Virus record (IMG/VR): IMGVR_UViG_2630968766_000009
Source of the DNA: a virus
Lineage: Duplodnaviria > Heunggongvirae > Uroviricota > Caudoviricetes
Direction: 5' to 3' (one strand)
Length of the DNA stretch: 40,446 nucleotides
Shown piece after piece: positions 1,367-33,969 of this stretch (positions are counted from its first letter, which is position 1; each line of letters begins with the position of its first letter). A program made the translations under genes and the position numbers. The notes under the pieces are model-generated. The model worked only from the letters and a program-made list of their open reading frames with translations, was not told the origin of the DNA and did not search any database.

Positions 1367-4768
<3,402 letters not shown>

Positions 4769-21808: not shown

Positions 21809-22302
21809 TGCTGACCCCACAAACAGATTTCACGCTCAATCTCACGACGAGTCATGAGACCTTTCCATTGCTTACCGCCAGCATATGTCCAGCGACGTAG
21901 CTGATCACATGCGCCTTTGATATCGCCCTGGTTTATTTTGCGAAGAAGCATCGATGTTCTGAAATTGCCAGCACCCACGTTGTAAACGAATGAGTAAAGA
22001 GCGCCGCGCATTGTTTCCGGTATATCGACTTTGATGTACGGGTTAATTTGTCTGGCGACCGTGGCAAGGTCTTTATTCAGGAGGGCTTTGCATTCTGCTT
22101 TGGTATACGTTTTACCGAGCATGATGTCTTTTCCTGTATGCCCGTGACATACAGTCCATACACCAACAATATCTTTGTATGGTATGTAGCTGACACCTTC
22201 CAGACCATCGTTACCACTTGGGCCAGTGATTAACACTGATGCTATAGCAATTGCTCCGCCACCAATAGCAGCAGCAACGGCTTTTCGTAATGATGGAGGC
22301 AT
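21805..22302 (-). CDS. R: SAR endolysin (T4-lysozyme family, phage 21 R-like)
   Basis: 165-aa ORF with a Gly/Ala-rich N-terminal signal-anchor-release segment ([20 protein letters not shown]) followed by a lysozyme domain. This is not the lambda transglycosylase R. Confidence 0.85.
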
Positions 22303-22517
22303 TATTCACCTCTCGCAGCCTTGCGCTTATCTTCTTTAATCTTGAAATAAAGGTTTGTCAGGTACGTCAGCAGGCCAAATACCAGGCTACCCAGCACACC
22401 TATTGCTGCCCACTGTGAGGGCGTGACTTTATCGAGCAGCTGTAAAAACCAGTAACCGGCACTACCTGCTGAGGTGCCATAGGCGACACCCGTTGTTAAC
22501 TTATCCATGGATTTCAT
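22302..22517 (-). CDS. S: Pinholin with dual start (phage 21 S-like)
   Basis: Frame 22302-22562 trimmed to [26 protein letters not shown]... (71 aa); the MKSM dual-start motif is typical of holin/antiholin pairs; two transmembrane segments. Confidence 0.8.
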
Positions 22518-23105
22518 AACCCCACCTCGCAGACAAAGCGGGTGTAAATTGAGGGAATACAACGTATCGCAAAAAAGCAGAAACGTAACAGACTCGGAGT
22601 CAGTGAATAACTCAGGTATTGAGTTATCAGCTAATATCGAGACTCAAAAAATGGAAAAACCAGCTCGACGGCGGGTTTAAGCTGTGTGACGAAGTAACCA
22701 CTCTTAACAGCATAACCAATTTTTTACGTACGTAAACCACTGAATGATATTTATGAGAATGCTACCGAGTGTTCAAAACACCACCACAAATACATAAGAA
22801 AATCTCAACAAATAACCAATAAATAATTTCCGGAGTTATTTTTAGTTAATTTAAATTAAACCACCGAATTATAGAACCCCCATAAATAACAGCCATTAAT
22901 ATAAATTAGCTAATAGGTTTATTTTTGTTCAAATAAGAGCCATAAATAGGTTTCGATAGAAAAAGTTCAGATAAAAATAGAGATCTACTTCACAAATTAA
23001 ATGAGAAACTAAAACTTACATCTTGAAATAATCACATTGATTAGATGAATATTTATCGCGCAGTGACATCATTTTTTAATAATAGTTCAAAAAAAAGGGC
23101 TCACG

Positions 23106-24203
23106 ATGAAAAAATTAACAGTGGCAATTTCTGCTGTAGCTGCATCAGTACTGATGGCGATGTCTGCTCAGGCAGCTGAAATTTATAATAAAGACAGTAA
23201 CAAGCTGGATCTGTACGGGAAAGTTAATGCCAAGCACTACTTTTCCTCTAACGATGCAGATGATGGTGATACTACTTATGTTCGTCTGGGCTTCAAAGGC
23301 GAAACCCAAATCAACGATCAGCTGACTGGTTTCGGTCAGTGGGAATATGAATTCAAAGGCAACCGCGCTGAATCTCAAGGTTCCTCCAAAGACAAAACCC
23401 GTCTTGCATTTGCAGGCCTGAAATTCGGTGACTACGGCTCAATCGATTACGGCCGTAACTACGGTGTAGCATACGACATCGGTGCGTGGACTGACGTTCT
23501 GCCAGAATTCGGTGGCGATACCTGGACCCAAACAGATGTGTTCATGACTGGTCGCACCACTGGTGTTGCAACCTATCGTAACAACGACTTCTTTGGTCTG
23601 GTTGATGGTCTGAACTTTGCTGCTCAGTACCAAGGCAAAAACGATCGTAGCGATTTCGATAACTACACCGAAGGTAACGGTGATGGCTTCGGTTTCTCTG
23701 CTACCTATGAATACGAAGGGTTCGGTATCGGTGCAACTTATGCGAAATCTGATCGTACCGACACTCAAGTTAATGCAGGGAAAGTTCTTCCTGAAGTATT
23801 TGCTTCCGGTAAAAATGCAGAAGTTTGGGCCGCAGGTCTGAAATATGACGCTAACAACATTTACCTGGCCACTACCTATTCTGAAACCCAGAATATGACT
23901 GTATTTGCTGATCACTTCGTTGCTAATAAAGCTCAAAACTTCGAAGCTGTTGCACAATATCAGTTCGATTTCGGTCTGCGTCCGTCCGTTGCTTACCTGC
24001 AATCTAAAGGTAAGGATCTTGGAGTATGGGGCGATCAGGACTTAGTCAAATATGTTGATGTAGGTGCAACCTATTACTTCAACAAAAATATGTCTACTTT
24101 CGTTGATTACAAAATCAACCTGCTTGACAAAAATGACTTCACTAAAGCACTCGGTGTAAGCACTGATGACATCGTTGCTGTAGGTCTGGTTTACCAGTTC
24201 TAA
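23106..24203 (+). CDS. nmpC: Phage-encoded general porin (OmpC/OmpF family; NmpC/Lc-like)
   Basis: 365-aa ORF with a signal peptide ([23 protein letters not shown]), porin-like sequence and C-terminal ...VGLVYQF. Preceded by a 540-bp AT-rich region and an AAAAGGG RBS. Confidence 0.9.
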
Positions 24204-24211
24204 TCTGATTA

Positions 24212-24252
24212 CGAAAAAGATATGTTGGGGAGGCTTTGCCTCCCCAACATAT
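24212..24252 (-). terminator. 15-bp-stem hairpin with a T-run on the minus strand (candidate late-leader terminator tR')
   Basis: atatgttggggaggc (24220-24234) pairs with gcctccccaacatat (24238-24252); on the minus strand it is followed by cTTTTT (24219-24214). About 140-180 nt downstream of the Q stop in the late direction. Confidence 0.4.
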
Positions 24253-24339
24253 AAGTGGCTCCCTCAAGCCACTTCCTTTAGGAGCACAACCTTGCTTCTA
24301 ACTATATAAACCTTCTGTTATATATTACCCTTTATTTTT

Positions 24340-24365
24340 GGGGGCGTTGCAACGCCCCATTTTTA
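24340..24365 (+). terminator. Intrinsic terminator downstream of the porin gene
   Basis: Hairpin gggggcgttgcaacgcccc (24340-24358) followed by aTTTTTaa on the plus strand. Confidence 0.5.
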
Positions 24366-24391
24366 ATAATTTTTAGTAAACAATTGGCATA

Positions 24392-24775
24392 TTAATTAGA
24401 GTTATTAACAACGATATCCATCTCTAACCGGATATCTAATGCCATTAACATCCCTTCAATTATGCCCTCAGCCTTCTGTAACCTTTTCCCGATATAACCA
24501 TCAGAGCAGCAATGCTTACCTGCCAGTGACATGAATGTCATACCGACTACATAATAATCTACTAATAAATCGTGCAAATCGCTGTTGTTCTTTTTCAGAC
24601 GGGCCATGCACCCGCAAATGATCATCGCGTCATCGTCACAACATTGCGGGCGAGATTTTACTTTTGAAGGAATTAATCCCTTAAAACCGGCGGCAATGGA
24701 CGACCAGGTCACATCTTCATGATTATTAGCCGCCCACGCTCCCCAACGCTCAAGAACCATCTGAATATCACGCAT
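24392..24775 (-). CDS. Q: Late antiterminator Q (phage 21/82-type, QuuD-like)
   Basis: Frame trimmed to [26 protein letters not shown]... (127 aa) with the Cys-rich motif [13 protein letters not shown]; lies between rusA and the lysis genes. Confidence 0.85.
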
Positions 24776-24860
24776 CAACTTACTCCACAAAAATCAGACC
24801 AGAACGCCAATTACAAGCAAAAATCAACAAAACAGTATTAGTTGATTGTTATCTCTGACT

Positions 24861-24998
24861 TCATACTCCTGCTCCTGTCAGGGTTTTGGCGTAATTCTTC
24901 AGTATTCGGTAATCGGTCAAAACAGAACCGGGGAAACGATATAAGCGCAGACGCCCCCAGCGGTGGCGAAGAAGTTCTGCCATATTAAACTCAAACAT
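24861..24998 (-). CDS. Small protein (YlcG-like), translationally coupled to rusA
   Basis: Manual translation: [45 protein letters not shown] (45 aa); its ATG overlaps the rusA stop (TGATG). Below the ORF-track size cutoff. Confidence 0.4.
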   Translation of the reverse strand: MFEFNMAELLRHRWGRLRLYRFPGSVLTDYRILKNYAKTLTGAGV

Positions 24999-25360
24999 CA
25001 TTCATTCCCCATTTCGGTGATGGTCAGTTCCAGCCTCCCACCTTTGGTAACAGGCATCTTCACAACGCGGTAATCAACGACCTGAGCATCATCCAGCCAG
25101 AAACCTGCTTTAGTGAGTGCGTCAAAAGCGGCTTTTTGCAGATTATCCAGGTCACGGCGACGGCGATCCGGCATGTGGCACTCAATGCGGATTTTCACAG
25201 GCATAGCCAGGCCGATATCCAGCATTGCGTTTTTAATGATTCGGGCGACGTTATCGCGGTATGCCTGCCCCTCTGCACTGACGTGCGTGCGCCCGCGATT
25301 ATGGCGGTAATAGCGATTATTGCTCGGAGGCCATGGTAATGTGATACTGTAGGTATTCAC
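24998..25360 (-). CDS. rusA: Holliday junction resolvase RusA
   Basis: 120-aa [40 protein letters not shown]..., matching the remembered RusA sequence. Confidence 0.9.
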
Positions 25361-25647
25361 GCCTTAATAACCCCCTCTTTCAGCCAGATAACCTGTGTTC
25401 TCGCCATACCTTCCAGCGCGCATTCTTTTGCATATGCAGCATCGACAAAATGTGTGCGGCGGTCGATTTCGTCGTGGCAGGCAGAACATGCAATGGTGGC
25501 AATCAGGTCTGGCGGTTTGGTACCGGTGCCGCACAATCCAGTCAGCCGGATATGTGCCAGTACAGACGTTTCAGGGTTGCCATTACATACGCCAGGGATT
25601 CTTACCTGGCATTCCCGACCACGCGCTGCTTTTCTCAAATCAGCCAT
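25357..25647 (-). CDS. YbcO-like putative zinc-binding nuclease (DUF1364)
   Basis: Frame trimmed to [29 protein letters not shown]... (96 aa); Cys/His-rich; start overlaps the ninE-like stop. Confidence 0.7.
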
Positions 25648-25810
25648 GATTCCTCCTTGCTGCCAGTCGCAACCATTTTTTATCAACCAGGCTAGCGGTA
25701 TATCCGAGCAGTGTTGGTATTTCGGATGGCTTCAGCTCAGGCTTACGCTTACGACGATTTGATACTCTGTAGATGTGTCCGTTCATGACACGAATAAGCG
25801 GTGTAGCCAT
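25640..25810 (-). CDS. ninE: NinE-like small protein
   Basis: Manual translation: [56 protein letters not shown] (56 aa); its ATG overlaps the ninB stop (TAATG). Confidence 0.5.
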   Translation of the reverse strand: MATPLIRVMNGHIYRVSNRRKRKPELKPSEIPTLLGYTASLVDKKWLRLAARRNHG

Positions 25811-26265
25811 TACGCCTCCTGCTTGTCGCGGAGCAGCTGGAACTCGCAGCTCTGCGGAATAGTCAGGTGGCAGCCAATATTCACCGCCCAGGCTTCAACC
25901 TTACACAGGAAGACATACATCTCTCCGGTATCAAGATCGGAGGTATAGCGTAATGACTGAATGGTGGTGATTTCACCGGTTACGACATCAACCAGGTCTT
26001 TGGTTTCAAAACCGAGATAAGTGTGTTTGAGAGCATCTTTTACCCAAGCTGCAGTAGCGAACGATTTCCCCCTGCTTATGAGGTATTCACTGATTTCGCT
26101 GTACCACATGTGGCTAAGTGCATTCTGGGAAAGACTGCGTCTCTCGCGCCACGGTTTAAGCACCATGCGAAAGCATTTTCCGTCCTCCAGATAAGGCTGG
26201 ATCTGCTGACCGATAGCGGTGAAGTTACCGCGATGTAATTTGATGCCGTCTTGTGGGAGGTTCAC
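25810..26265 (-). CDS. NinB/YbcN-family recombination protein
   Basis: 151-aa ORF in the nin-region position; remembered as similar to DLP12 YbcN. Confidence 0.7.
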
Positions 26266-26475
26266 GCTTCACCTCCGCAGAGGTCAAACGTTGGATGCAA
26301 AAAATCGCAGGTGCATTTCTGCATCTGTGAAGGGAGAAGAGAGTTTGGATTGTGTGTGCGCATAAACGTCCCCGTTTAGCGCAGAAGTCACCGGAGTTGT
26401 TCAGGTTCCGGTGATACAATTATGGCGAATTGATGACGGAGAATCAATTTTGCGAAAATGACACGATTGATCTAC

Positions 26476-27108
26476 TCAGGCCTTGGAAAGCTTGAGCTTA
26501 CCCTTTACGTGCAGAGTGTTAATTAACCAGAAGGCCCCGAGCAAACACATACAATGCGCGCTAGTGACTAACTTACAAATACGAATGCGATTTTCTTCAA
26601 GATCAGGAGGTAGCTCTTTCATCAACGCTATAGCGTAGATTCCATCCTTGAGAATTGGCTCAACAACTTGATGCACGTAGCCACCATGGTTAATCTCTTC
26701 TAACTTTATGTTTTTAATCGATTCTGCGAGTTTATCAACCTCTTCATTTGTAATTACATATTCAATTTTATGAGCGTACTTGTTACGTATTGTGTTGAGC
26801 TCAGCCATAGCGTCTGCAAGCGAGACAGGAAGCCCTAACAGAACTGCGGCAGACAGCTTTGACGCAAAATACTTATAGCTTCTTATCGAATTGTATTTTT
26901 CAGAGCCATCAGGTCGTAAGTTTTCAATAACAACCCGAAGAAAGTCCTCATGAATTAGCATCAATTTTAATAGCGCGGCAGACTCATCCTCATAGTTAGC
27001 TATCGAGGCCATTTTATTAAGATCTAGAAAATAGCCAAAGTCATGATCGATTTTCACGTAGTTACCCTCATCCGTTGTTGGACTTTGTTCAATTCGAGAG
27101 AATTTCAT
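26476..27108 (-). CDS. Hypothetical protein with a HEPN-like R-x4-H motif (candidate toxin / abortive-infection effector)
   Basis: 210-aa ORF in AT-rich DNA; motif ELNTIRNKYAHK (RNxxAH) typical of HEPN RNase active sites; hydrophobic C-terminal segment LLGAFWLINTL. Start overlaps the upstream small ORF stop (ATGA). Confidence 0.55.
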   Translation of the reverse strand: MKFSRIEQSPTTDEGNYVKIDHDFGYFLDLNKMASIANYEDESAALLKLMLIHEDFLRVVIENLRPDGSEKYNSIRSYKYFASKLSAAVLLGLPVSLADAMAELNTIRNKYAHKIEYVITNEEVDKLAESIKNIKLEEINHGGYVHQVVEPILKDGIYAIALMKELPPDLEENRIRICKLVTSAHCMCLLGAFWLINTLHVKGKLKLSKA

Positions 27109-27281
27109 TTATCTTCCTCCTGTTTCATATATCTAGGGTCAGATGCTTTAGGCTGGGTGATGCTATGCTCAATGGAGAAGCCGGACGCGCTCCATGTTGA
27201 TTTGCCAGTTTGAGCTATCGTGACAACACATTCATTATTGTCGATGTTAACTTCGCGCAGCACTGGTAACTGTGAATTCAT
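27105..27281 (-). CDS. Small hypothetical protein (58 aa) coupled to the HEPN-like gene
   Basis: Manual translation: MNSQLPVLREVNIDNNECVVTIAQTGKSTWSASGFSIEHSITQPKASDPRYMKQEEDK; a GGAG RBS precedes the ATG and the stop overlaps the next start. Confidence 0.4.
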   Translation of the reverse strand: MNSQLPVLREVNIDNNECVVTIAQTGKSTWSASGFSIEHSITQPKASDPRYMKQEEDK

Positions 27282-27443
27282 TTTCTAACTCCTGTTTAAT
27301 GTTGACACCGCATTTATGCTGTCACGACACAATTACTTTCTATCCTGCTGTGATGCTGCTGACAGCGGCATCCAATACCTTACCTTCTCAGCATTCTGCA
27401 AAATCGATGACGAGTCATGACCGGTTCGCGTAGCTCAGTGAAA

Positions 27444-28067
27444 TTACTGCAACCTTTCCTGACGGAAATATGGTAACACTCGACTCCACTTATCATCCTG
27501 CCAAGGCTGGAATTTTACATGTGCCGTTTCTCTGGCGAGGATTGCTCGCGCTCTGTTGAGTATCTGGGGATATTCTTGCTCGATAGAAGTAAAGCGACCG
27601 GCTTCGCGGTGCTCCGCGACCTGAAGAAGTGGAGTAACGTTCTGGCAGGCAGTTAACATCACATCACTTGCTCGCCATAACCAAGCAAGTGTGCAAAGTT
27701 CGTTATCAGTGAATTGTTTTGTGATTGGGGATTGTTGAATTTCTCGATCGAGAATATCCAGCACCCAGCGGCGGAACTCTTTGGCTACAGGAGTTCGTGC
27801 AAACATGGCGATCAGGTGAGCGCCGCGCAGGGAGAATACACGCACTTTTTTTCTGTAATTTCCTGAGGTCACTGATTCGATGACCTGAGTCATACCGCTA
27901 GTAAATTCGTCGGCATTCTGGTTGAACAGATTAGTTACTGACTTTGCGCTTTTGTACTGTAAAGCGTTCGCGATTTCGGTAGAGGTCAGCCAGATTCCTG
28001 TCATGCCAGCAACCGGTACAATCGCTTTACCTTGGAAGTTCAGATCTGATCTTGCTACAATATTCAT
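27444..28067 (-). CDS. Bro-N domain antirepressor-like protein
   Basis: Frame 27444-28148; N-terminal LNFQGKAIVPVAGMTGIWLTSTEIANALQY and ...SLRGAHLIAMFARTPVAKEFRRWVLDIL match the Bro-N pattern. Start chosen at MNIVAR (AGGA RBS); the alternative ATG at 28148 overlaps the upstream RHH gene. Confidence 0.65.
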   Translation of the reverse strand: MNIVARSDLNFQGKAIVPVAGMTGIWLTSTEIANALQYKSAKSVTNLFNQNADEFTSGMTQVIESVTSGNYRKKVRVFSLRGAHLIAMFARTPVAKEFRRWVLDILDREIQQSPITKQFTDNELCTLAWLWRASDVMLTACQNVTPLLQVAEHREAGRFTSIEQEYPQILNRARAILARETAHVKFQPWQDDKWSRVLPYFRQERLQ

Positions 28068-28137
28068 GTCGATATTTCCTACGCGGTTATTTTCGATAGA
28101 AGCCCCTGAGGTTGCCGCCAACGGGGCTTCGCTGTTT

Positions 28138-28296
28138 TTAGCGAGCATGTATCCGCTCTCTAAATTTCAATGCCCACACAAGCGCCTGAACAATAGCGGC
28201 GTTCTCAGACATCCCTTCCTCCTGTGCAATTCGCTTGAATTCATCCTTCACATTTTGCGGATAGCGAAGGGTGATTTTTACTTCTTTCTTTTCCAT
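28138..28296 (-). CDS. Arc-like ribbon-helix-helix repressor
   Basis: Frame trimmed to MEKKEVKITLRYPQNVKDEFKRIAQEEGMSENAAIVQALVWALKF... (52 aa); AGGAG RBS 7 nt upstream; RHH beta-strand and helix pattern. Confidence 0.6.
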   Translation of the reverse strand: MEKKEVKITLRYPQNVKDEFKRIAQEEGMSENAAIVQALVWALKFRERIHAR

Positions 28297-28396
28297 TGAT
28301 ATCTCCTTGTGAGGCCATAATGACACCATGAGGCCATAATGCCACCATTGAATTGATGTGGCAATATGGCACCATTCATTTTTTTGGGGATTTCCA
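28297..28396. promoter_or_regulatory. Divergent promoter/operator region with tandem 19-bp repeats
   Basis: gaggccataatgacaccat and gaggccataatgccaccat in tandem, then a third partial copy (gcaatatggcaccat), between the two divergently transcribed RHH genes. Confidence 0.4.
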
Positions 28397-28699
28397 ATGG
28401 CTGATAAACAAGTAAAAAACTATGATAAGTTTAACCTCCGTTTCCCTGATGGGATGCGTGAAGCTATAGCTGAACGTGCCAAGCGTAATGGCCGCTCAAT
28501 GAACTCAGAAATCGTGCAAATACTTGAAGATGCGCTTTATACAGACAGTGCACGAGTGTTCACCGTTGAAGATGAAGTGAATCACTCAGGGAATGTAGCA
28601 ATAGATCCCGTGCAACTTGAGAAATTAATGGAAAAAGTGATAAACAAGGCATTAATGGGCTTTACAGGATCGCCTGCAAAAAAAATTGATAAAAAATAA
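28397..28699 (+). CDS. Mnt/Arc-like ribbon-helix-helix repressor
   Basis: Frame trimmed to MADKQVKNYDKFNLRFPDGMREAIAERAKRNGRSMNSEIVQILEDAL..., close to the P22 Arc/Mnt RHH motif (FNLRxP...NGRSxNSEI), with about 50 extra C-terminal residues. Confidence 0.65.
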   Translation: MADKQVKNYDKFNLRFPDGMREAIAERAKRNGRSMNSEIVQILEDALYTDSARVFTVEDEVNHSGNVAIDPVQLEKLMEKVINKALMGFTGSPAKKIDKK

Positions 28700-28738
28700 A
28701 AAAATTATTAGAAACTTCTGCTATATGACTAAGGATAA

Positions 28739-29221
28739 ATGATGAGTAAATTTGATCGTTATTTACAAAGAGAAATTCTGGCTTTAGCTATTGATGCCTA
28801 CCCTGCTTATATTGGTCATAAACACTCTAAAATTCCAGCCAGCTATGAGTTATTAAAAAATGCCAAAGAAGATTTGGTGTATCCTAATATACATTACTTG
28901 CATGAACACAGCTTAATAAATTTCGATAAGATAGGATATAGAAATAACAACAGTAATCCCTTAGCATGGGTAAAAGCAACCTCTCACGGCATTGATTTCG
29001 TTCAGCAGGATGGAGGCCTTTCTGCCATTCTAAACGTCAAAACAATCAGGTTTCATAAAGACACTATAGTTGTACTGGAAGACCTCATAGCGATTTCAAA
29101 TATGAATGATACTGATAAAGAAAAGGCTAAATCTATTCTTTCTGAATTACCAGTTGATGCAATTAAAACAGTTGTACAAACACTTACAACTACAGCTCTA
29201 AATGCGTTGCTAAAATCATAA
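28739..29221 (+). CDS. Hypothetical protein (160 aa), AT-rich, downstream of the Mnt-like gene
   Basis: ORF begins 40 nt after the Mnt-like stop with an AAGGA RBS; no domain recognised. Confidence 0.45.
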   Translation: MMSKFDRYLQREILALAIDAYPAYIGHKHSKIPASYELLKNAKEDLVYPNIHYLHEHSLINFDKIGYRNNNSNPLAWVKATSHGIDFVQQDGGLSAILNVKTIRFHKDTIVVLEDLIAISNMNDTDKEKAKSILSELPVDAIKTVVQTLTTTALNALLKS

Positions 29222-29366
29222 ACGCTCCTATGAAAGGCTTGTCCTTATGGTTATGACTTAGGAGGATCATCGTTATCCCTCAATCAATAAATATAAATTT
29301 ACCACGACGAAATTAAATATTTTTAATACAACCGGCATTAACACTTAAAGCAATAATAGTGAGTTA

Positions 29367-29789
29367 TTAAGATGTAATACGGTAAGTTGAAGTATTTTCT
29401 CCTTTATAACAGTTCAAAACATTAAATTTATTGACCAATTTGACCATGCCAGAATTTACGTTTACCACTACCATTTCAACAACTGGCAGTTTCTTAAGCA
29501 ATGAAGAAATTACTTGAAATCCTATTGATTTTCCCTGCATGCTTTTAGCTATATGAATTTCATGCAAAAATATGTAACCTTCACGAGGGATTGATATATC
29601 CAAATTCATATATTCAATCTCTACATACCCAACTAAATAACCTTGGTGCTTTATAAAATAGATATTCTGCACATCATTGATTTCATAAACTTTTTGGCTC
29701 CAGCCATAACTAGAACGGTAGGTATTTAACGTTATAAGTTTTTTATCATCAGGTAGATTACAAGAAGCAAACTTAACAAAATTAACCAT
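29367..29789 (-). CDS. GNAT-family acetyltransferase-like protein
   Basis: 140-aa ORF in very AT-rich DNA; segment IFLHEIHIAKSMQGKSIGFQVISSLLKKL resembles GNAT motif A (R/Q-G-K-G-I-G with one substitution). Confidence 0.45.
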   Translation of the reverse strand: MVNFVKFASCNLPDDKKLITLNTYRSSYGWSQKVYEINDVQNIYFIKHQGYLVGYVEIEYMNLDISIPREGYIFLHEIHIAKSMQGKSIGFQVISSLLKKLPVVEMVVVNVNSGMVKLVNKFNVLNCYKGENTSTYRITS

Positions 29790-30112
29790 AATCTAACCTT
29801 CCGTTAATTTCCGAATAGTTATAATAAAAACATAATCGATTTGCCGTTTCTTATCCACAATATGGTAGACTCGTGAACGTGCTATAATGATATTATATCA
29901 TACCAACATTTTTATAGCTCTCCCTAAATTTTCGTCTTCAGTGGGCCACCTGAAAACACCGTTTGTCATGTTTTTCTACCTAGCGCCCTCTTTCGCCAGA
30001 ATACCTTCCTCCCGGTTGATACTGACTATGGTCGCACTAGTCGATTCTGCAACATCAGTCGCACAGAAATTCTGGTGCGTTTCCAAGTAGTGAATAATTG
30101 CCTCTTTGCCCG

Positions 30113-30814
30113 TCATACAGTTGCTCCTTTCAGTCCGAACTTCGCTTTAATTTCTGCGATCTTCGCCAGAGCCTGTGCACGATTTAGAGGTCTACCGCCC
30201 ATGACAGGAAGTTGTTTTACTGGTTCAGGTATAGCCTCACCACGGTTAATTCGTGCGGTCATACAGGACAGTTCATCGGCAGCCTTGCGCCGTAATTCCG
30301 CGTCAGTCAACGCATTGGCCCGCATGTTCTGATACAGGTTGGTAACCAGCCAGTAGTGCGCGTTTGATTTCCACGGATAAGACTCTGCATCCGGATACAG
30401 CCCGCGCTTCCGGCAATACTCGTAAACCATATCAACCAGCTCGCTGGCGTTTGGCAGCCCGGCGGTAACGGATGCTTCTTCCCGGCACCAGGCGACAAAC
30501 TGCCCGGGTGATGGCAGGAATGGTCGATTCTGCCGACGGGCTACGCGCATTCCAGCGTTAACCTGTTCCATTGTGGTGATCCCGTTTTCCCGGAAAGCCA
30601 GCACCCACTGGCGGCGGATTTCGTTCAGTTCATTCTGGTCACGGTTAGCCAGGCTCGCCGGGAAAGTTGCCAGTAACTGGCTGAACACACCATTGATGAT
30701 CTGCGCTACCTGTTGTACCTGCGGCTTTTCGTCGTACTGTTCCGGCATGTTGTTGGCGATCCGGCGCATCTGCTCACGGTCAAAGTTAACCATCTGTGCG
30801 GCGATGTTTTTCAT
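30113..30814 (-). CDS. P: Replication protein P (DnaB helicase loader)
   Basis: 233-aa ORF, lambda gpP length; start overlaps the O stop. Confidence 0.9.
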   Translation of the reverse strand: MKNIAAQMVNFDREQMRRIANNMPEQYDEKPQVQQVAQIINGVFSQLLATFPASLANRDQNELNEIRRQWVLAFRENGITTMEQVNAGMRVARRQNRPFLPSPGQFVAWCREEASVTAGLPNASELVDMVYEYCRKRGLYPDAESYPWKSNAHYWLVTNLYQNMRANALTDAELRRKAADELSCMTARINRGEAIPEPVKQLPVMGGRPLNRAQALAKIAEIKAKFGLKGATV

Positions 30815-31826: not shown

Positions 31827-32372
31827 TCATATTGCCCCCAGCATGGTGGTGACCATCGCCATCAATGGACCAGCCAGATCCGGGTCCACTCGAAACATCG
31901 ACACAATGCCTTCACTCATCTCCTTCAGTTTCTGGTGGCGTGGTGCGTTGAGAATGACCGCCTGCTTTGCCTCACAGAGTTCCTTTTCCATTTCAGCCAG
32001 CCGAGCCATGAAGCTATCCTGCTCAACCAGGTGGCCGCGATATTCCAGCGGTAGTACCGCCAGAATTGCCGGGGTCAGTTCACGCACGTTATTTCGGTAT
32101 TTTTCAGAATCGAATTTGTTATCGAGGAAGCGGAACAGCTTCTGGCGTGCACGGCTGACATCATCAGGGAAATCGATGGTGCCGCCGCCCTGCTCCCGAT
32201 ACTCATTCACAATGAGTGCGGCAACAACATCCTGATTATCTGCAGCCGACCAGGCGCGAACGGCATCACGGATTTTTTCGTGGCCTGGCACCTGTTTTAT
32301 TTGAGAACGATTTATCACCGCAGTCGGGCTAAATCCGCTAGTCTGTTGGTATGTAAGTGGTTGCATAATCAT
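31827..32372 (-). CDS. YdaT-family protein (cII-position regulator)
   Basis: 181-aa ORF immediately after the cro-like gene; segment NEYREQGGG...LTPAILAVLPLEYRGHL resembles remembered Rac YdaT. Confidence 0.55.
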   Translation of the reverse strand: MIMQPLTYQQTSGFSPTAVINRSQIKQVPGHEKIRDAVRAWSAADNQDVVAALIVNEYREQGGGTIDFPDDVSRARQKLFRFLDNKFDSEKYRNNVRELTPAILAVLPLEYRGHLVEQDSFMARLAEMEKELCEAKQAVILNAPRHQKLKEMSEGIVSMFRVDPDLAGPLMAMVTTMLGAI

Positions 32373-32396
32373 TGCCTTATCAGTTAACGCCGCAGT

Positions 32397-32624
32397 TTAG
32401 GCGGCAGAATTACTCGCGTTAAACAATGGTGCAAGGTCGGGACGAATATCTGCTGGTTTAATCTTTCCACCAGTGGCTGAGACAATTTTCATTACATAGC
32501 GGGCATCAATTCCCCCACCGTGTAGCCAACGCCAAACAGTGGGCTGGGCTACACCGCATAGATCTGCCAGTCGTTTTTGGCTACCTGTAATACTGATTGC
32601 GAGTTGAATGGTTTGATTTGTCAT
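32397..32624 (-). CDS. Cro-like HTH regulator (YdaS-type)
   Basis: Frame trimmed to MTNQTIQLAISITGSQKRLADLCGVAQPTVWRWLHGG...; AGGA RBS; divergent from cI. Confidence 0.65.
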   Translation of the reverse strand: MTNQTIQLAISITGSQKRLADLCGVAQPTVWRWLHGGGIDARYVMKIVSATGGKIKPADIRPDLAPLFNASNSAA

Positions 32625-32630
32625 TATCAA

Positions 32631-32734
32631 TTCCTATTGGTATTACAATGAATGGATAATAGCAATGCGTATTAACCCAATCAATAGCAAAACGTGTTTT
32701 GACCATCAATACGCAAGCGTATAAATTAAAACTT
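32631..32734. promoter_or_regulatory. oR-like region: divergent pR and pRM with operator-like imperfect palindromes
   Basis: Minus-strand TTGATT-N17-TATTAT (plus coordinates 32656-32684) upstream of the cro-like gene. Plus-strand TTGACC ... TATAAA 9 nt before the cI ATG. Motifs such as taatagcaatgcgtatta recur at the pL-side site. Confidence 0.4.
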
Positions 32735-33427
32735 ATGAAAAAAGAAACTCTTGCTGATCGCTTAAACCTAGCGATGGAACAATCTGGAATGTCTCAAGGC
32801 GCTCTTGCAAAGGCGTCTGGCGTAGCTCAACCCACAATCTGGAGACTGACAAGCGGCAACGCACGCGGCTCAACAAAAATTGTTGAAATAGCTAATGCAT
32901 TGGGTGTTCGAACAGAGTGGCTCTCATCAGGCATAGGCCCGATGAGAAATGACGGTCAACAATCAGGGAAGCCTGCTGCCAACCATCCCAAATACTTCAA
33001 GATTGACGTTCTTGATATAGAAGTGAGTGCCGGGCCGGGAGTCATCAACCGTGAGTTTGTAGAAGTTCTACGCTCGGTTGAGTACTCGTTTGACGATGCT
33101 CGTCACATGTTCGATGGCAGGAAGGCAGAAAATATCCGCATCATTAACGTACGCGGTGACAGCATGTCAGGAACGATCGAACCAGGTGATCTTCTGTTCG
33201 TTGATATCACTGTTAAATCTTTCGACGGTGATGGTATCTATGCGTTTCTGTATGACGACACAGCCCATGTTAAGCGCCTGCAAATGATGAAGGATAAACT
33301 GCTGGTTATCTCTGATAACAAGAGCTACTCACCGTGGGACCCAATCGAGAAAGACGAGATGAACCGGGTGTTTATCTTCGGGAAAGTTATTGGGAGCATG
33401 CCGCAAACATACAGGAAACATGGATAA
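32735..33427 (+). CDS. cI: CI-type repressor (N-terminal HTH, C-terminal LexA-like S24 autopeptidase)
   Basis: Frame trimmed to MKKETLADRLNLAMEQSGMSQGALAKASGVAQPTIWRL...; C-terminal GDSM...KRL Ser/Lys dyad. Confidence 0.85.
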   Translation: MKKETLADRLNLAMEQSGMSQGALAKASGVAQPTIWRLTSGNARGSTKIVEIANALGVRTEWLSSGIGPMRNDGQQSGKPAANHPKYFKIDVLDIEVSAGPGVINREFVEVLRSVEYSFDDARHMFDGRKAENIRIINVRGDSMSGTIEPGDLLFVDITVKSFDGDGIYAFLYDDTAHVKRLQMMKDKLLVISDNKSYSPWDPIEKDEMNRVFIFGKVIGSMPQTYRKHG

Positions 33428-33507: not shown

Positions 33508-33969
33508 ATGAGAATACTAGGTGTTAGGGCGGCGCCCAAAGTTACATCTTTTGTTGTATATTGCACTGATGAGTCTGCACTCAAATGTGTTGATGTTATT
33601 AAAATACCTTCGACCTTAGACACACCAGAAAAATTAAAGTATGTGCGAAATAACATCCTCGACATTCTTAATTTATATAATGTTGAATTAGCTGCTATAC
33701 GCGTTACTGAATCAAACTCTGATAATCTTAGCATTGACCGCCTTTATATAGAAGCTGTTATTCAAGAAGCATTTTCAAGCAGTGATGTAAGAAGATATTA
33801 CACCATTAGAAAATCTGGTATGAAGTCATCATTGAACCTAACAGAGATCGAGTATAAAGAAATATTGAAGTCACACCGTAATATAAATGGAATCGATAAT
33901 TCTGGTTTTACAACTGAAACAAATGAAGCTGTTTTGGCTGCACTATCTGCGGAGGTAAGGGGATGCTGA
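33508..33969 (+). CDS. Hypothetical protein (153 aa), translationally coupled to the kinase gene
   Basis: AT-rich ORF MRILGVRAAPKVTSFVVYCTDE...; its stop overlaps the kinase start (ATGCTGA). No domain recognised with confidence. Confidence 0.55.
   Translation: MRILGVRAAPKVTSFVVYCTDESALKCVDVIKIPSTLDTPEKLKYVRNNILDILNLYNVELAAIRVTESNSDNLSIDRLYIEAVIQEAFSSSDVRRYYTIRKSGMKSSLNLTEIEYKEILKSHRNINGIDNSGFTTETNEAVLAALSAEVRGC

Follow-up and report, generated by a model that had tools for sequence, protein, structure and literature searches.

The window analyzed in this study, the whole of a 40,446-nucleotide stretch of viral DNA (IMG/VR record IMGVR_UViG_2630968766_000009, Caudoviricetes), belongs to a lambdoid prophage of E. 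coli that has its integration site at icd. Positions 27444-28699 possess two divergent ribbon-helix-helix (RHH) genes, an intergenic control region, an antirepressor-like gene and a predicted antisense RNA. This cassette was compared with the immI region of Salmonella phage P22, which contains mnt, arc, sar and ant, and its members were named after their P22 counterparts. An initial annotation made from the letters alone had proposed a P22-like immunity module inside a lambda-like prophage. The coordinates it gave are exact: the Bro-N gene has its stop at 27444 and the plus-strand RHH gene at 28699. The lambda-like setting was also confirmed. All four components of the cassette are intact.

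The plus-strand mnt-like gene (28397-28699) encodes a protein of 100 aa composed of an N-terminal RHH domain followed by a C-terminal extension. It starts at ATG 28397, and the GTG at 28358 selected by the open reading frame (ORF) finder is not the start. The protein matched the Pfam family Arc (PF03869) with an E value of 9.3e-20 and 70.7 bits, above the cutoff of 20.4. Its RHH core showed 58% identity to P22 Mnt over 36 aa, and the Mnt structure 1mnt was found in the PDB at 1.7e-7 along with solved Arc structures. The kinship with Arc and Mnt which the initial annotation had recognized in this protein was thus upheld. It also matched FitA-like_RHH (1.6e-8) and, weakly, HicB. An AlphaFold2 model was computed without alignment and used for secondary structure only; it predicted helices at residues 18-31, 35-49 and 71-90, of which the last is situated in the C-terminal extension.

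The arc-like gene (28138-28296, minus strand) is the first gene of the arc-ant operon. It encodes a 52-aa RHH protein which starts at ATG 28296, with the Shine-Dalgarno (SD) sequence AAGGAG upstream. The Pfam Arc score was 21.9 bits, narrowly above the cutoff, so that both of the divergent genes that had been described as RHH genes belong to this family. Identity to P22 Arc was 36% over 45 aa (pairwise E 1e-8), and matches were found to phrog_582 'Arc-like repressor' (2e-9) and to Arc chains in the PDB (2e-4). The following gene, ant (27444-28067, minus strand), encodes 207 aa with a Bro-N domain (Pfam, 4.4e-9) and a P22_AR_C domain (4.1e-16; 59.3 bits, cutoff 22.4), and its product matched phrog_245 'anti-repressor Ant' at 9e-54. 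Nothing was above cutoff in NCBIfam. The presence of a Bro-N antirepressor-like gene after the minus-strand RHH gene was therefore confirmed. Alignment to P22 Ant covered 97 aa at 23% identity. Direct homology was thus seen for all three P22 proteins.

The 100-bp control region (28297-28396) lies between the arc-like and mnt-like genes and had been called operator-rich. It contains three related predicted boxes of 19 bp. Box 1 (28310-28328) and box 2 (28329-28347) are adjacent 19-nt direct repeats matching at 18 of 19 positions, and box 3 (28358-28375) is an inverted copy with 83% complementarity. A promoter scan located a putative Pant on the minus strand, composed of the -35 element TTGCCA (28364-28359), a 17-nt spacer and a TG-extended -10 element CATTAT (28341-28336). 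A plus-strand site which mirrors it was recognized by eye and is a plausible candidate for Pmnt, with the -35 element ATGCCA (28339-28344), a 17-nt spacer and the TG-extended -10 element CAATAT (28362-28367). The two sites share 26 bp in a back-to-back arrangement, just as the annotated Pant and Pmnt of P22 overlap by 24 bp. Across 13 diverged intergenic regions, the invariant columns were A-11 and T-7 of both -10 elements and TTG..A of the Pant -35 element.

Across subfamilies the spacing of boxes 1-3 is kept while their sequences change. Between the window and the Shiga toxin (Stx)-converting phages, which share the Mnt N-terminus but differ in Arc subtype, the main difference is in box 1, whereas boxes 2 and 3 change along with the type of Mnt N-terminus. 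This pattern is suggestive of an Arc site downstream of the Pant start and a Mnt site over both promoters, which would be the reverse of the P22 arrangement. Against this assignment, the window and Stx-phage types remain alike at 14 of 19 positions of box 1, and the sample of natural recombinants represents only about five independent lineages.

The arc-ant junction is predicted to encode a sar-like antisense RNA on the plus strand (28068-28139), a component that the initial annotation had not listed. It consists of a 5' hairpin (28068-28097), a terminator hairpin (28099-28130) and a U-run (28135-28139), and is complementary to the entire arc-ant intercistronic region and to the ant SD; the anti-SD motif UUUCC (28075-28079) lies inside the 5' hairpin. 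The sole match of the Rfam scan in this region was the sar RNA family RF00262, found over the full-length model at 28069-28133 on the plus strand (32.8 bits, below the gathering cutoff; E 9e-5). For calibration, P22 sar scored 97.8 bits with this model and the Stx-phage homologue at the equivalent position 29.5 bits. In the P22 record, sar begins at the base beside the ant ATG, reaches back as far as the stop codon of arc, and has its promoter Psar within ant. Similarly, the predicted start G28068 is beside ATG 28067 and the end of the U-run overlaps the arc stop codon (28138-28140). The predicted fold (-26.2 kcal/mol, z -2.67) comprises the 5' hairpin and a GC-rich terminator hairpin. Compensatory double changes were found in 6 of 10 pairs of the terminator stem in an alignment of 27 distinct homologues. 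Stem 1 varies in sequence between lineages and was left out of register by MAFFT, and it was assessed from per-sequence folds. All 20 variants that were folded singly formed the two-hairpin shape, with an anti-SD (UUCC/CUCC) in the 5' hairpin. A simple terminator scan of 27000-29900 returned no sites; the sar terminator was missed because of its internal bulge and the 4-nt gap before the U-run.

A Psar-like promoter is predicted on the plus strand at 28032-28061, within the first ant codons, with TTGGAA, an 18-nt spacer and the TG-extended -10 element TACAAT (28056-28061). Among 28 distinct related sequences, whose ant genes belong to different families, the -10 pattern TAnAnT and the TG before it are near-invariant, and the distance to the ant ATG is fixed in relatives and equal to that in P22. 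On the basis of position, promoter conservation, covariation and fold, we infer that a diverged sar homologue is present in spite of its sub-threshold score.

The Prokaryotic Genome Annotation Pipeline (PGAP) places the ant start at 28148, giving a protein of 234 aa which overlaps arc by 11 nt, and the same call is found in all related records. The true start is most likely 28067. In 6 of 38 distinct junctions (18 loci) the upstream ATG either is not in the ant frame or runs into a stop, while an internal ATG with an AGGA/GGGA SD is present in all 38 distinct junctions of related modules. In the window, AGGA is situated 9 nt upstream of ATG 28067. Mosaic ant alleles all diverge right after the internal ATG, and ATG 28067 is the counterpart of the annotated P22 ant start, which abuts the 5' end of sar. 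These features favor the internal start. The 27-codon 'extension' of ant is then most likely the sar region, translated in a frame that happens to be open; because this frame stays open across the sar region, the start has been called 81 nt too far upstream across databases. PHROG 245 itself appears to carry about 29 extra N-terminal profile positions derived from over-extended ant starts.

The organization of the host element was analyzed by comparison with strain SCU-113, in which the related prophage adjoins icd; int/xis mark one of its ends, and the lambda-like head and tail genes lie toward the opposite end. In the window, the early rightward operon with the cro-like, O, P, ren, nin, Q and lysis genes runs on the minus strand. 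The cassette belongs to the nin region, where it lies between a truncated ren and ninB/ybcN, with the arc-ant operon co-oriented with pR and the mnt-like gene opposed. It lies in an accessory island of 3.7 kb with a low GC content of 31-48%, compared to 50-57% in the flanks. For the 2.3 kb surrounding the cassette, 14 complete E. coli genomes carry exactly the same sequence (100% identity); their sources are unrelated and comprise human, platypus, seabird, yak, duck, soil and wastewater. The labels already given by PGAP are 'Arc family DNA-binding protein' for two genes and 'P22AR C-terminal domain-containing protein'. SOS control of the cassette through LexA was ruled out by a search for the LexA box CTGT-N8-ACAG with at most one mismatch, which found none at 21826-30256 and hence none in the cassette region (27000-29900).

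The P22 immI architecture which the initial annotation had proposed was found in every feature that can be read from sequence. P22 immI and the window cassette have the same gene order and orientations, with two Arc-family RHH repressors of which the longer one is divergent, a control region of about 90-100 bp with overlapping back-to-back promoters, an antisense RNA of about 70 nt running between the arc stop and the ant ATG from a promoter inside ant, and an Ant protein with P22_AR_C. They differ in genomic placement, as the P22 module lies in the late operon upstream of the tailspike gene while the host element of the window is a long-tailed lambdoid prophage whose nin region holds the module, co-oriented with pR. 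The N-terminus of Ant is Bro-N in the window and P22_AR_N in P22, the C-terminal half of the mnt-like protein is unrelated in sequence, and the three related 19-bp boxes (two direct, one inverted) take the place of the distinct Oarc and Omnt of P22.

Related modules with the layout mnt, control region of about 100 bp, arc, junction of about 70 nt and ant were parsed from 84 loci, IMG/VR contigs included. Escherichia phage PhiR5_1 (PV340545) carries the cassette at the same ren-ninB site, with a core from arc through the operators to the mnt N-terminus that is 90% identical, an Arc protein 96% identical and a nearly identical C-terminal half of Ant. It differs in the C-terminal half of Mnt, in a diverged Bro-N half of Ant with an insertion, and in the flanking accessory genes; its ant is annotated as 'Rha protein' and its RHH genes as hypothetical. 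A locus search with the arc-like protein recovered only 9 redundant loci of the PhiR5_1 type. The Stx-converting phages 2851, YYZ-2008, 1717 and Stx2a_WGPS8 (Pankowvirus) contain genes annotated as Arc-like, Arc family and 'anti-repressor Ant' in the same layout, with a Mnt-like protein 63% identical over 82 aa, 84-85% identity in boxes 2 and 3 and the promoter core, and a sar-like RNA. Their module is placed between minor tail genes, their Arc is of another subtype (IKLNLRLP), box 1 is diverged, and their Ant is of a 307-aa type whose N-terminus is P22_AR_N-like as judged by sequence similarity to P22 Ant. Cassettes were also found in Salmonella SPN3UB, Klebsiella ST11-VIM1phi8.1 and Edwardsiella GF-2, where insertion sites among tail genes were seen. 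The ant slot is occupied by different alleles, namely Bro-N with P22_AR_C, types with a P22_AR_N-like N-terminus including a near-P22 Ant, and types with a Bro-N-type N-terminus and a different C-terminal half. The related core of operators plus mnt is present in 338 of 5426 complete E. coli genomes (about 6%), among them many Shiga toxin-producing E. coli (STEC) serotypes such as O157 and O111.

On the basis of homology to P22 Mnt, Arc and Ant, the sar-like RNA at the P22 position, the promoter geometry and the 84 modules of the same layout, the cassette is probably a complete immI-type 'ant moron', homologous in its parts and layout to mnt-arc-sar-ant of P22 and carried in the nin region of a lambdoid prophage. 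Several observations weigh against this. The C-terminal part of the mnt-like protein, about 50 aa, showed no detectable similarity to the tetramerisation domain of P22 Mnt in a pairwise comparison, and the single-sequence AlphaFold2 model of this protein is of low confidence (pLDDT 51). The 23% identity of Ant to P22 Ant is low and limited to the C-terminal 97 aa, and since the N-terminal domain is Bro-N and not P22_AR_N, the homology is partial. By the Rfam gathering cutoff of 43 bits the sar-like RNA is not a member of RF00262. The promoter scan alone was not significant, with 5 sites found against 9.3 expected in shuffles; because promoter-like sites are not enriched in the region, it is conservation that carries the case for Pant and Pmnt. 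Finally, about 900 of the 5426 E. coli genomes possess, at this nin site, a close homologue of the C-terminal half of ant that is not accompanied by arc or mnt. This homologue is a gene of 202 aa, 87-93% identical in the C-terminal half and in line with the pR operon, which shows that an Ant-type protein also works outside immI-type control and possibly has another role. The arc/mnt-less gene at ren-ninB is preceded by 400-800 bp without a convincing ORF, for example in the O157:H7 prophages Vac_07.1 (3579-4330) and GN04592 (3610-4420).

These genomes speak for the main rival, in which the Bro-N/P22_AR_C protein has a role other than antirepression. In that case the cassette would be immI-like, but its protein would serve the lytic cycle as an accessory factor of the nin region, DNA-binding or other, and would be under Arc, Mnt and sar control here by chance. 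Bro-N is generally regarded as a DNA-binding domain, and a sequence search of the PDB with Ant returned no solved relatives. The P22_AR_C domain is, however, common to the window Ant and P22 Ant, near-P22 Ant alleles occupy the same slot of related cassettes, which speaks for functional equivalence, and control in three layers which limits expression to a pulse fits best a protein dangerous to lysogeny. A role of this kind is thus considered unlikely.

Two further explanations concern the cassette as a whole. It could be a remnant in decay that no longer functions in this prophage, as the truncation of the adjacent ren in SCU-113 and the low-GC mosaic of accessory genes in the island might suggest. 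This is very improbable, as the three ORFs are intact with good SDs, the promoters, boxes and sar-like RNA are intact as well, the sequence is 100% identical in 14 genomes, and an isolated phage, PhiR5_1, has the 90% identical core. The common occurrence of RHH proteins as antitoxins, the FitA-like_RHH and weak HicB matches of the mnt-like protein and the defence-like character of nearby ORFs, such as a 210-aa HEPN-like ORF, would instead fit a toxin-antitoxin or defence module with RHH antitoxins. Yet PADLOC found no defence-system match for Ant or its neighbours and no toxin domain is present, while immI fully explains the homology to P22 Arc, Mnt, Ant and sar along with the identical layout, and such a module is hardly to be expected here.

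If the immI-type cassette works as in P22, the Mnt-like protein produced from Pmnt, perhaps together with the downstream orf160, would keep Pant off in the lysogen. Upon infection or loss of Mnt, a brief firing of Pant would yield Arc and Ant. Arc would then close Pant, and the sar-like RNA would pair with the leftover ant mRNA and block its translation, so that Ant would be made only as a pulse. By analogy with P22, Ant would bind CI-type repressors and inactivate them non-covalently. During induction, antiterminated transcription from pR could also read into arc-ant, as their co-orientation would allow.

The CI-type repressor of the prophage itself (32699-33427) contains HTH_3 and Peptidase_S24 domains. 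Given the S24 domain it should self-cleave on SOS, and Ant is therefore probably not needed for SOS induction; Ant is probably accessory in this prophage, as in P22, where it is dispensable for induction (PMC3121763). P22 Ant acts on C2 and also on the repressors of L, lambda and 21 (PMC3121763). As P22 Ant hits several repressors and the own CI is expected to self-cleave, the most plausible targets would be the repressors of resident or co-resident heteroimmune prophages. Gifsy GfoA/GfhA, Fels-1 FsoA, N15 AntC and 186 Tum have the function that is proposed here for Ant of the window: they inactivate a prophage repressor by binding it, their genes lie away from the immunity region, and heteroimmune prophages may cross-talk through them (PMC3121763). 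They are unrelated proteins under the control of LexA or phage repressors, whereas the cassette employs two RHH proteins and an antisense RNA. The suggestion in the initial annotation that such a module can control prophage induction or act on the repressors of other phages would accordingly draw on the P22 and Gifsy/Fels precedents.

A broader and much more tentative proposal combines these points. The cassette may be a portable anti-immunity unit in which the conserved sar/Psar linker serves as the recombination joint for swaps of ant alleles. Its wiring may differ from P22, with Mnt autoregulating and repressing Pant from the centre and Arc acting at the transcript start, and Ant, within the pR operon, may be made on induction and trigger or defeat heteroimmune co-residents.

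The entire P22 immI circuit, antisense RNA included, thus also exists outside P22-like podoviruses. It moves as a unit into temperate phages of other kinds, lambda-like and Stx-converting ones among them, and occupies several sites in their genomes. As the related core is present in about 6% of complete E. coli genomes, of which many are STEC, such cassettes could influence prophage cross-induction and hence the release of toxin phages. Diverged sar RNAs fall below the Rfam threshold and are left unannotated. The 'ant moron' concept and its high flux among P22-like phages have been described (PMC2629481), a mnt-arc-ant locus has been noted in Kapi1, an E. coli phage closely related to P22 (PMC12922286), and Ant genes are counted in surveys of Stx phages (PMC8136144). 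A full-text literature search found no description of long-tailed lambdoid prophages with the full four-part cassette in their nin region, of a conserved sar/Psar linker across ant families or of a systematic mis-call of the ant start. These three points are incremental additions to a kind of module which is already known and do not make it a new system.

Beyond the mnt-like gene, orf160 (28739-29221, plus strand; phrog_3983) begins 40 nt past the mnt-like stop in a stretch of 32% GC, with no terminator found between them by a simple scan, and is a possible passenger of the Pmnt transcript. No Pfam, NCBIfam or PADLOC match was found for it. It is 38% identical to a gene which overlaps the mnt-like stop in Edwardsiella phage GF-2. 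Its relatives in Klebsiella, Pseudomonas and E. coli phages stand as a lone gene on the strand opposite to their immediate neighbours, and a relative in an Acinetobacter phage lies among same-strand genes. From its context, orf160 looks like a moron expressed in lysogeny. Beside the truncated ren, where the island is richest in AT (31% GC), a GNAT acetyltransferase gene is present at 29367-29789 on the minus strand (Pfam 5.5e-5).

Downstream of ant, the 210-aa ORF at 26476-27108 (minus strand, phrog_5712) contains the motif RNKYAH (Rx4H, HEPN-like) and showed weak sub-threshold matches to DUF4145 and HEPN_Swt1. In O157:H7 prophages, a 'HEPN domain-containing protein' is annotated at the equivalent nin site, which may be a hotspot of defence genes.

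The immunity region of the window differs from that of the SCU-113 prophage, which is elsewhere 97-99% identical. The annotation of SCU-113 was thus unusable there and the region was re-annotated directly. At the cro and cII positions, 31827-32630 (minus strand) encodes YdaS-like (1e-14) and YdaT-like (2.6e-29) products, as in Rac-type immunity regions. The CI repressor gene is directly followed by a 153-aa ORF without family match (33508-33969, plus strand) and a gene for a eukaryotic-type protein kinase (33963-35009, plus strand; Pkinase 1.2e-46). The equivalent immunity region of SCU-113 contains a different kinase together with a PP2C phosphatase.

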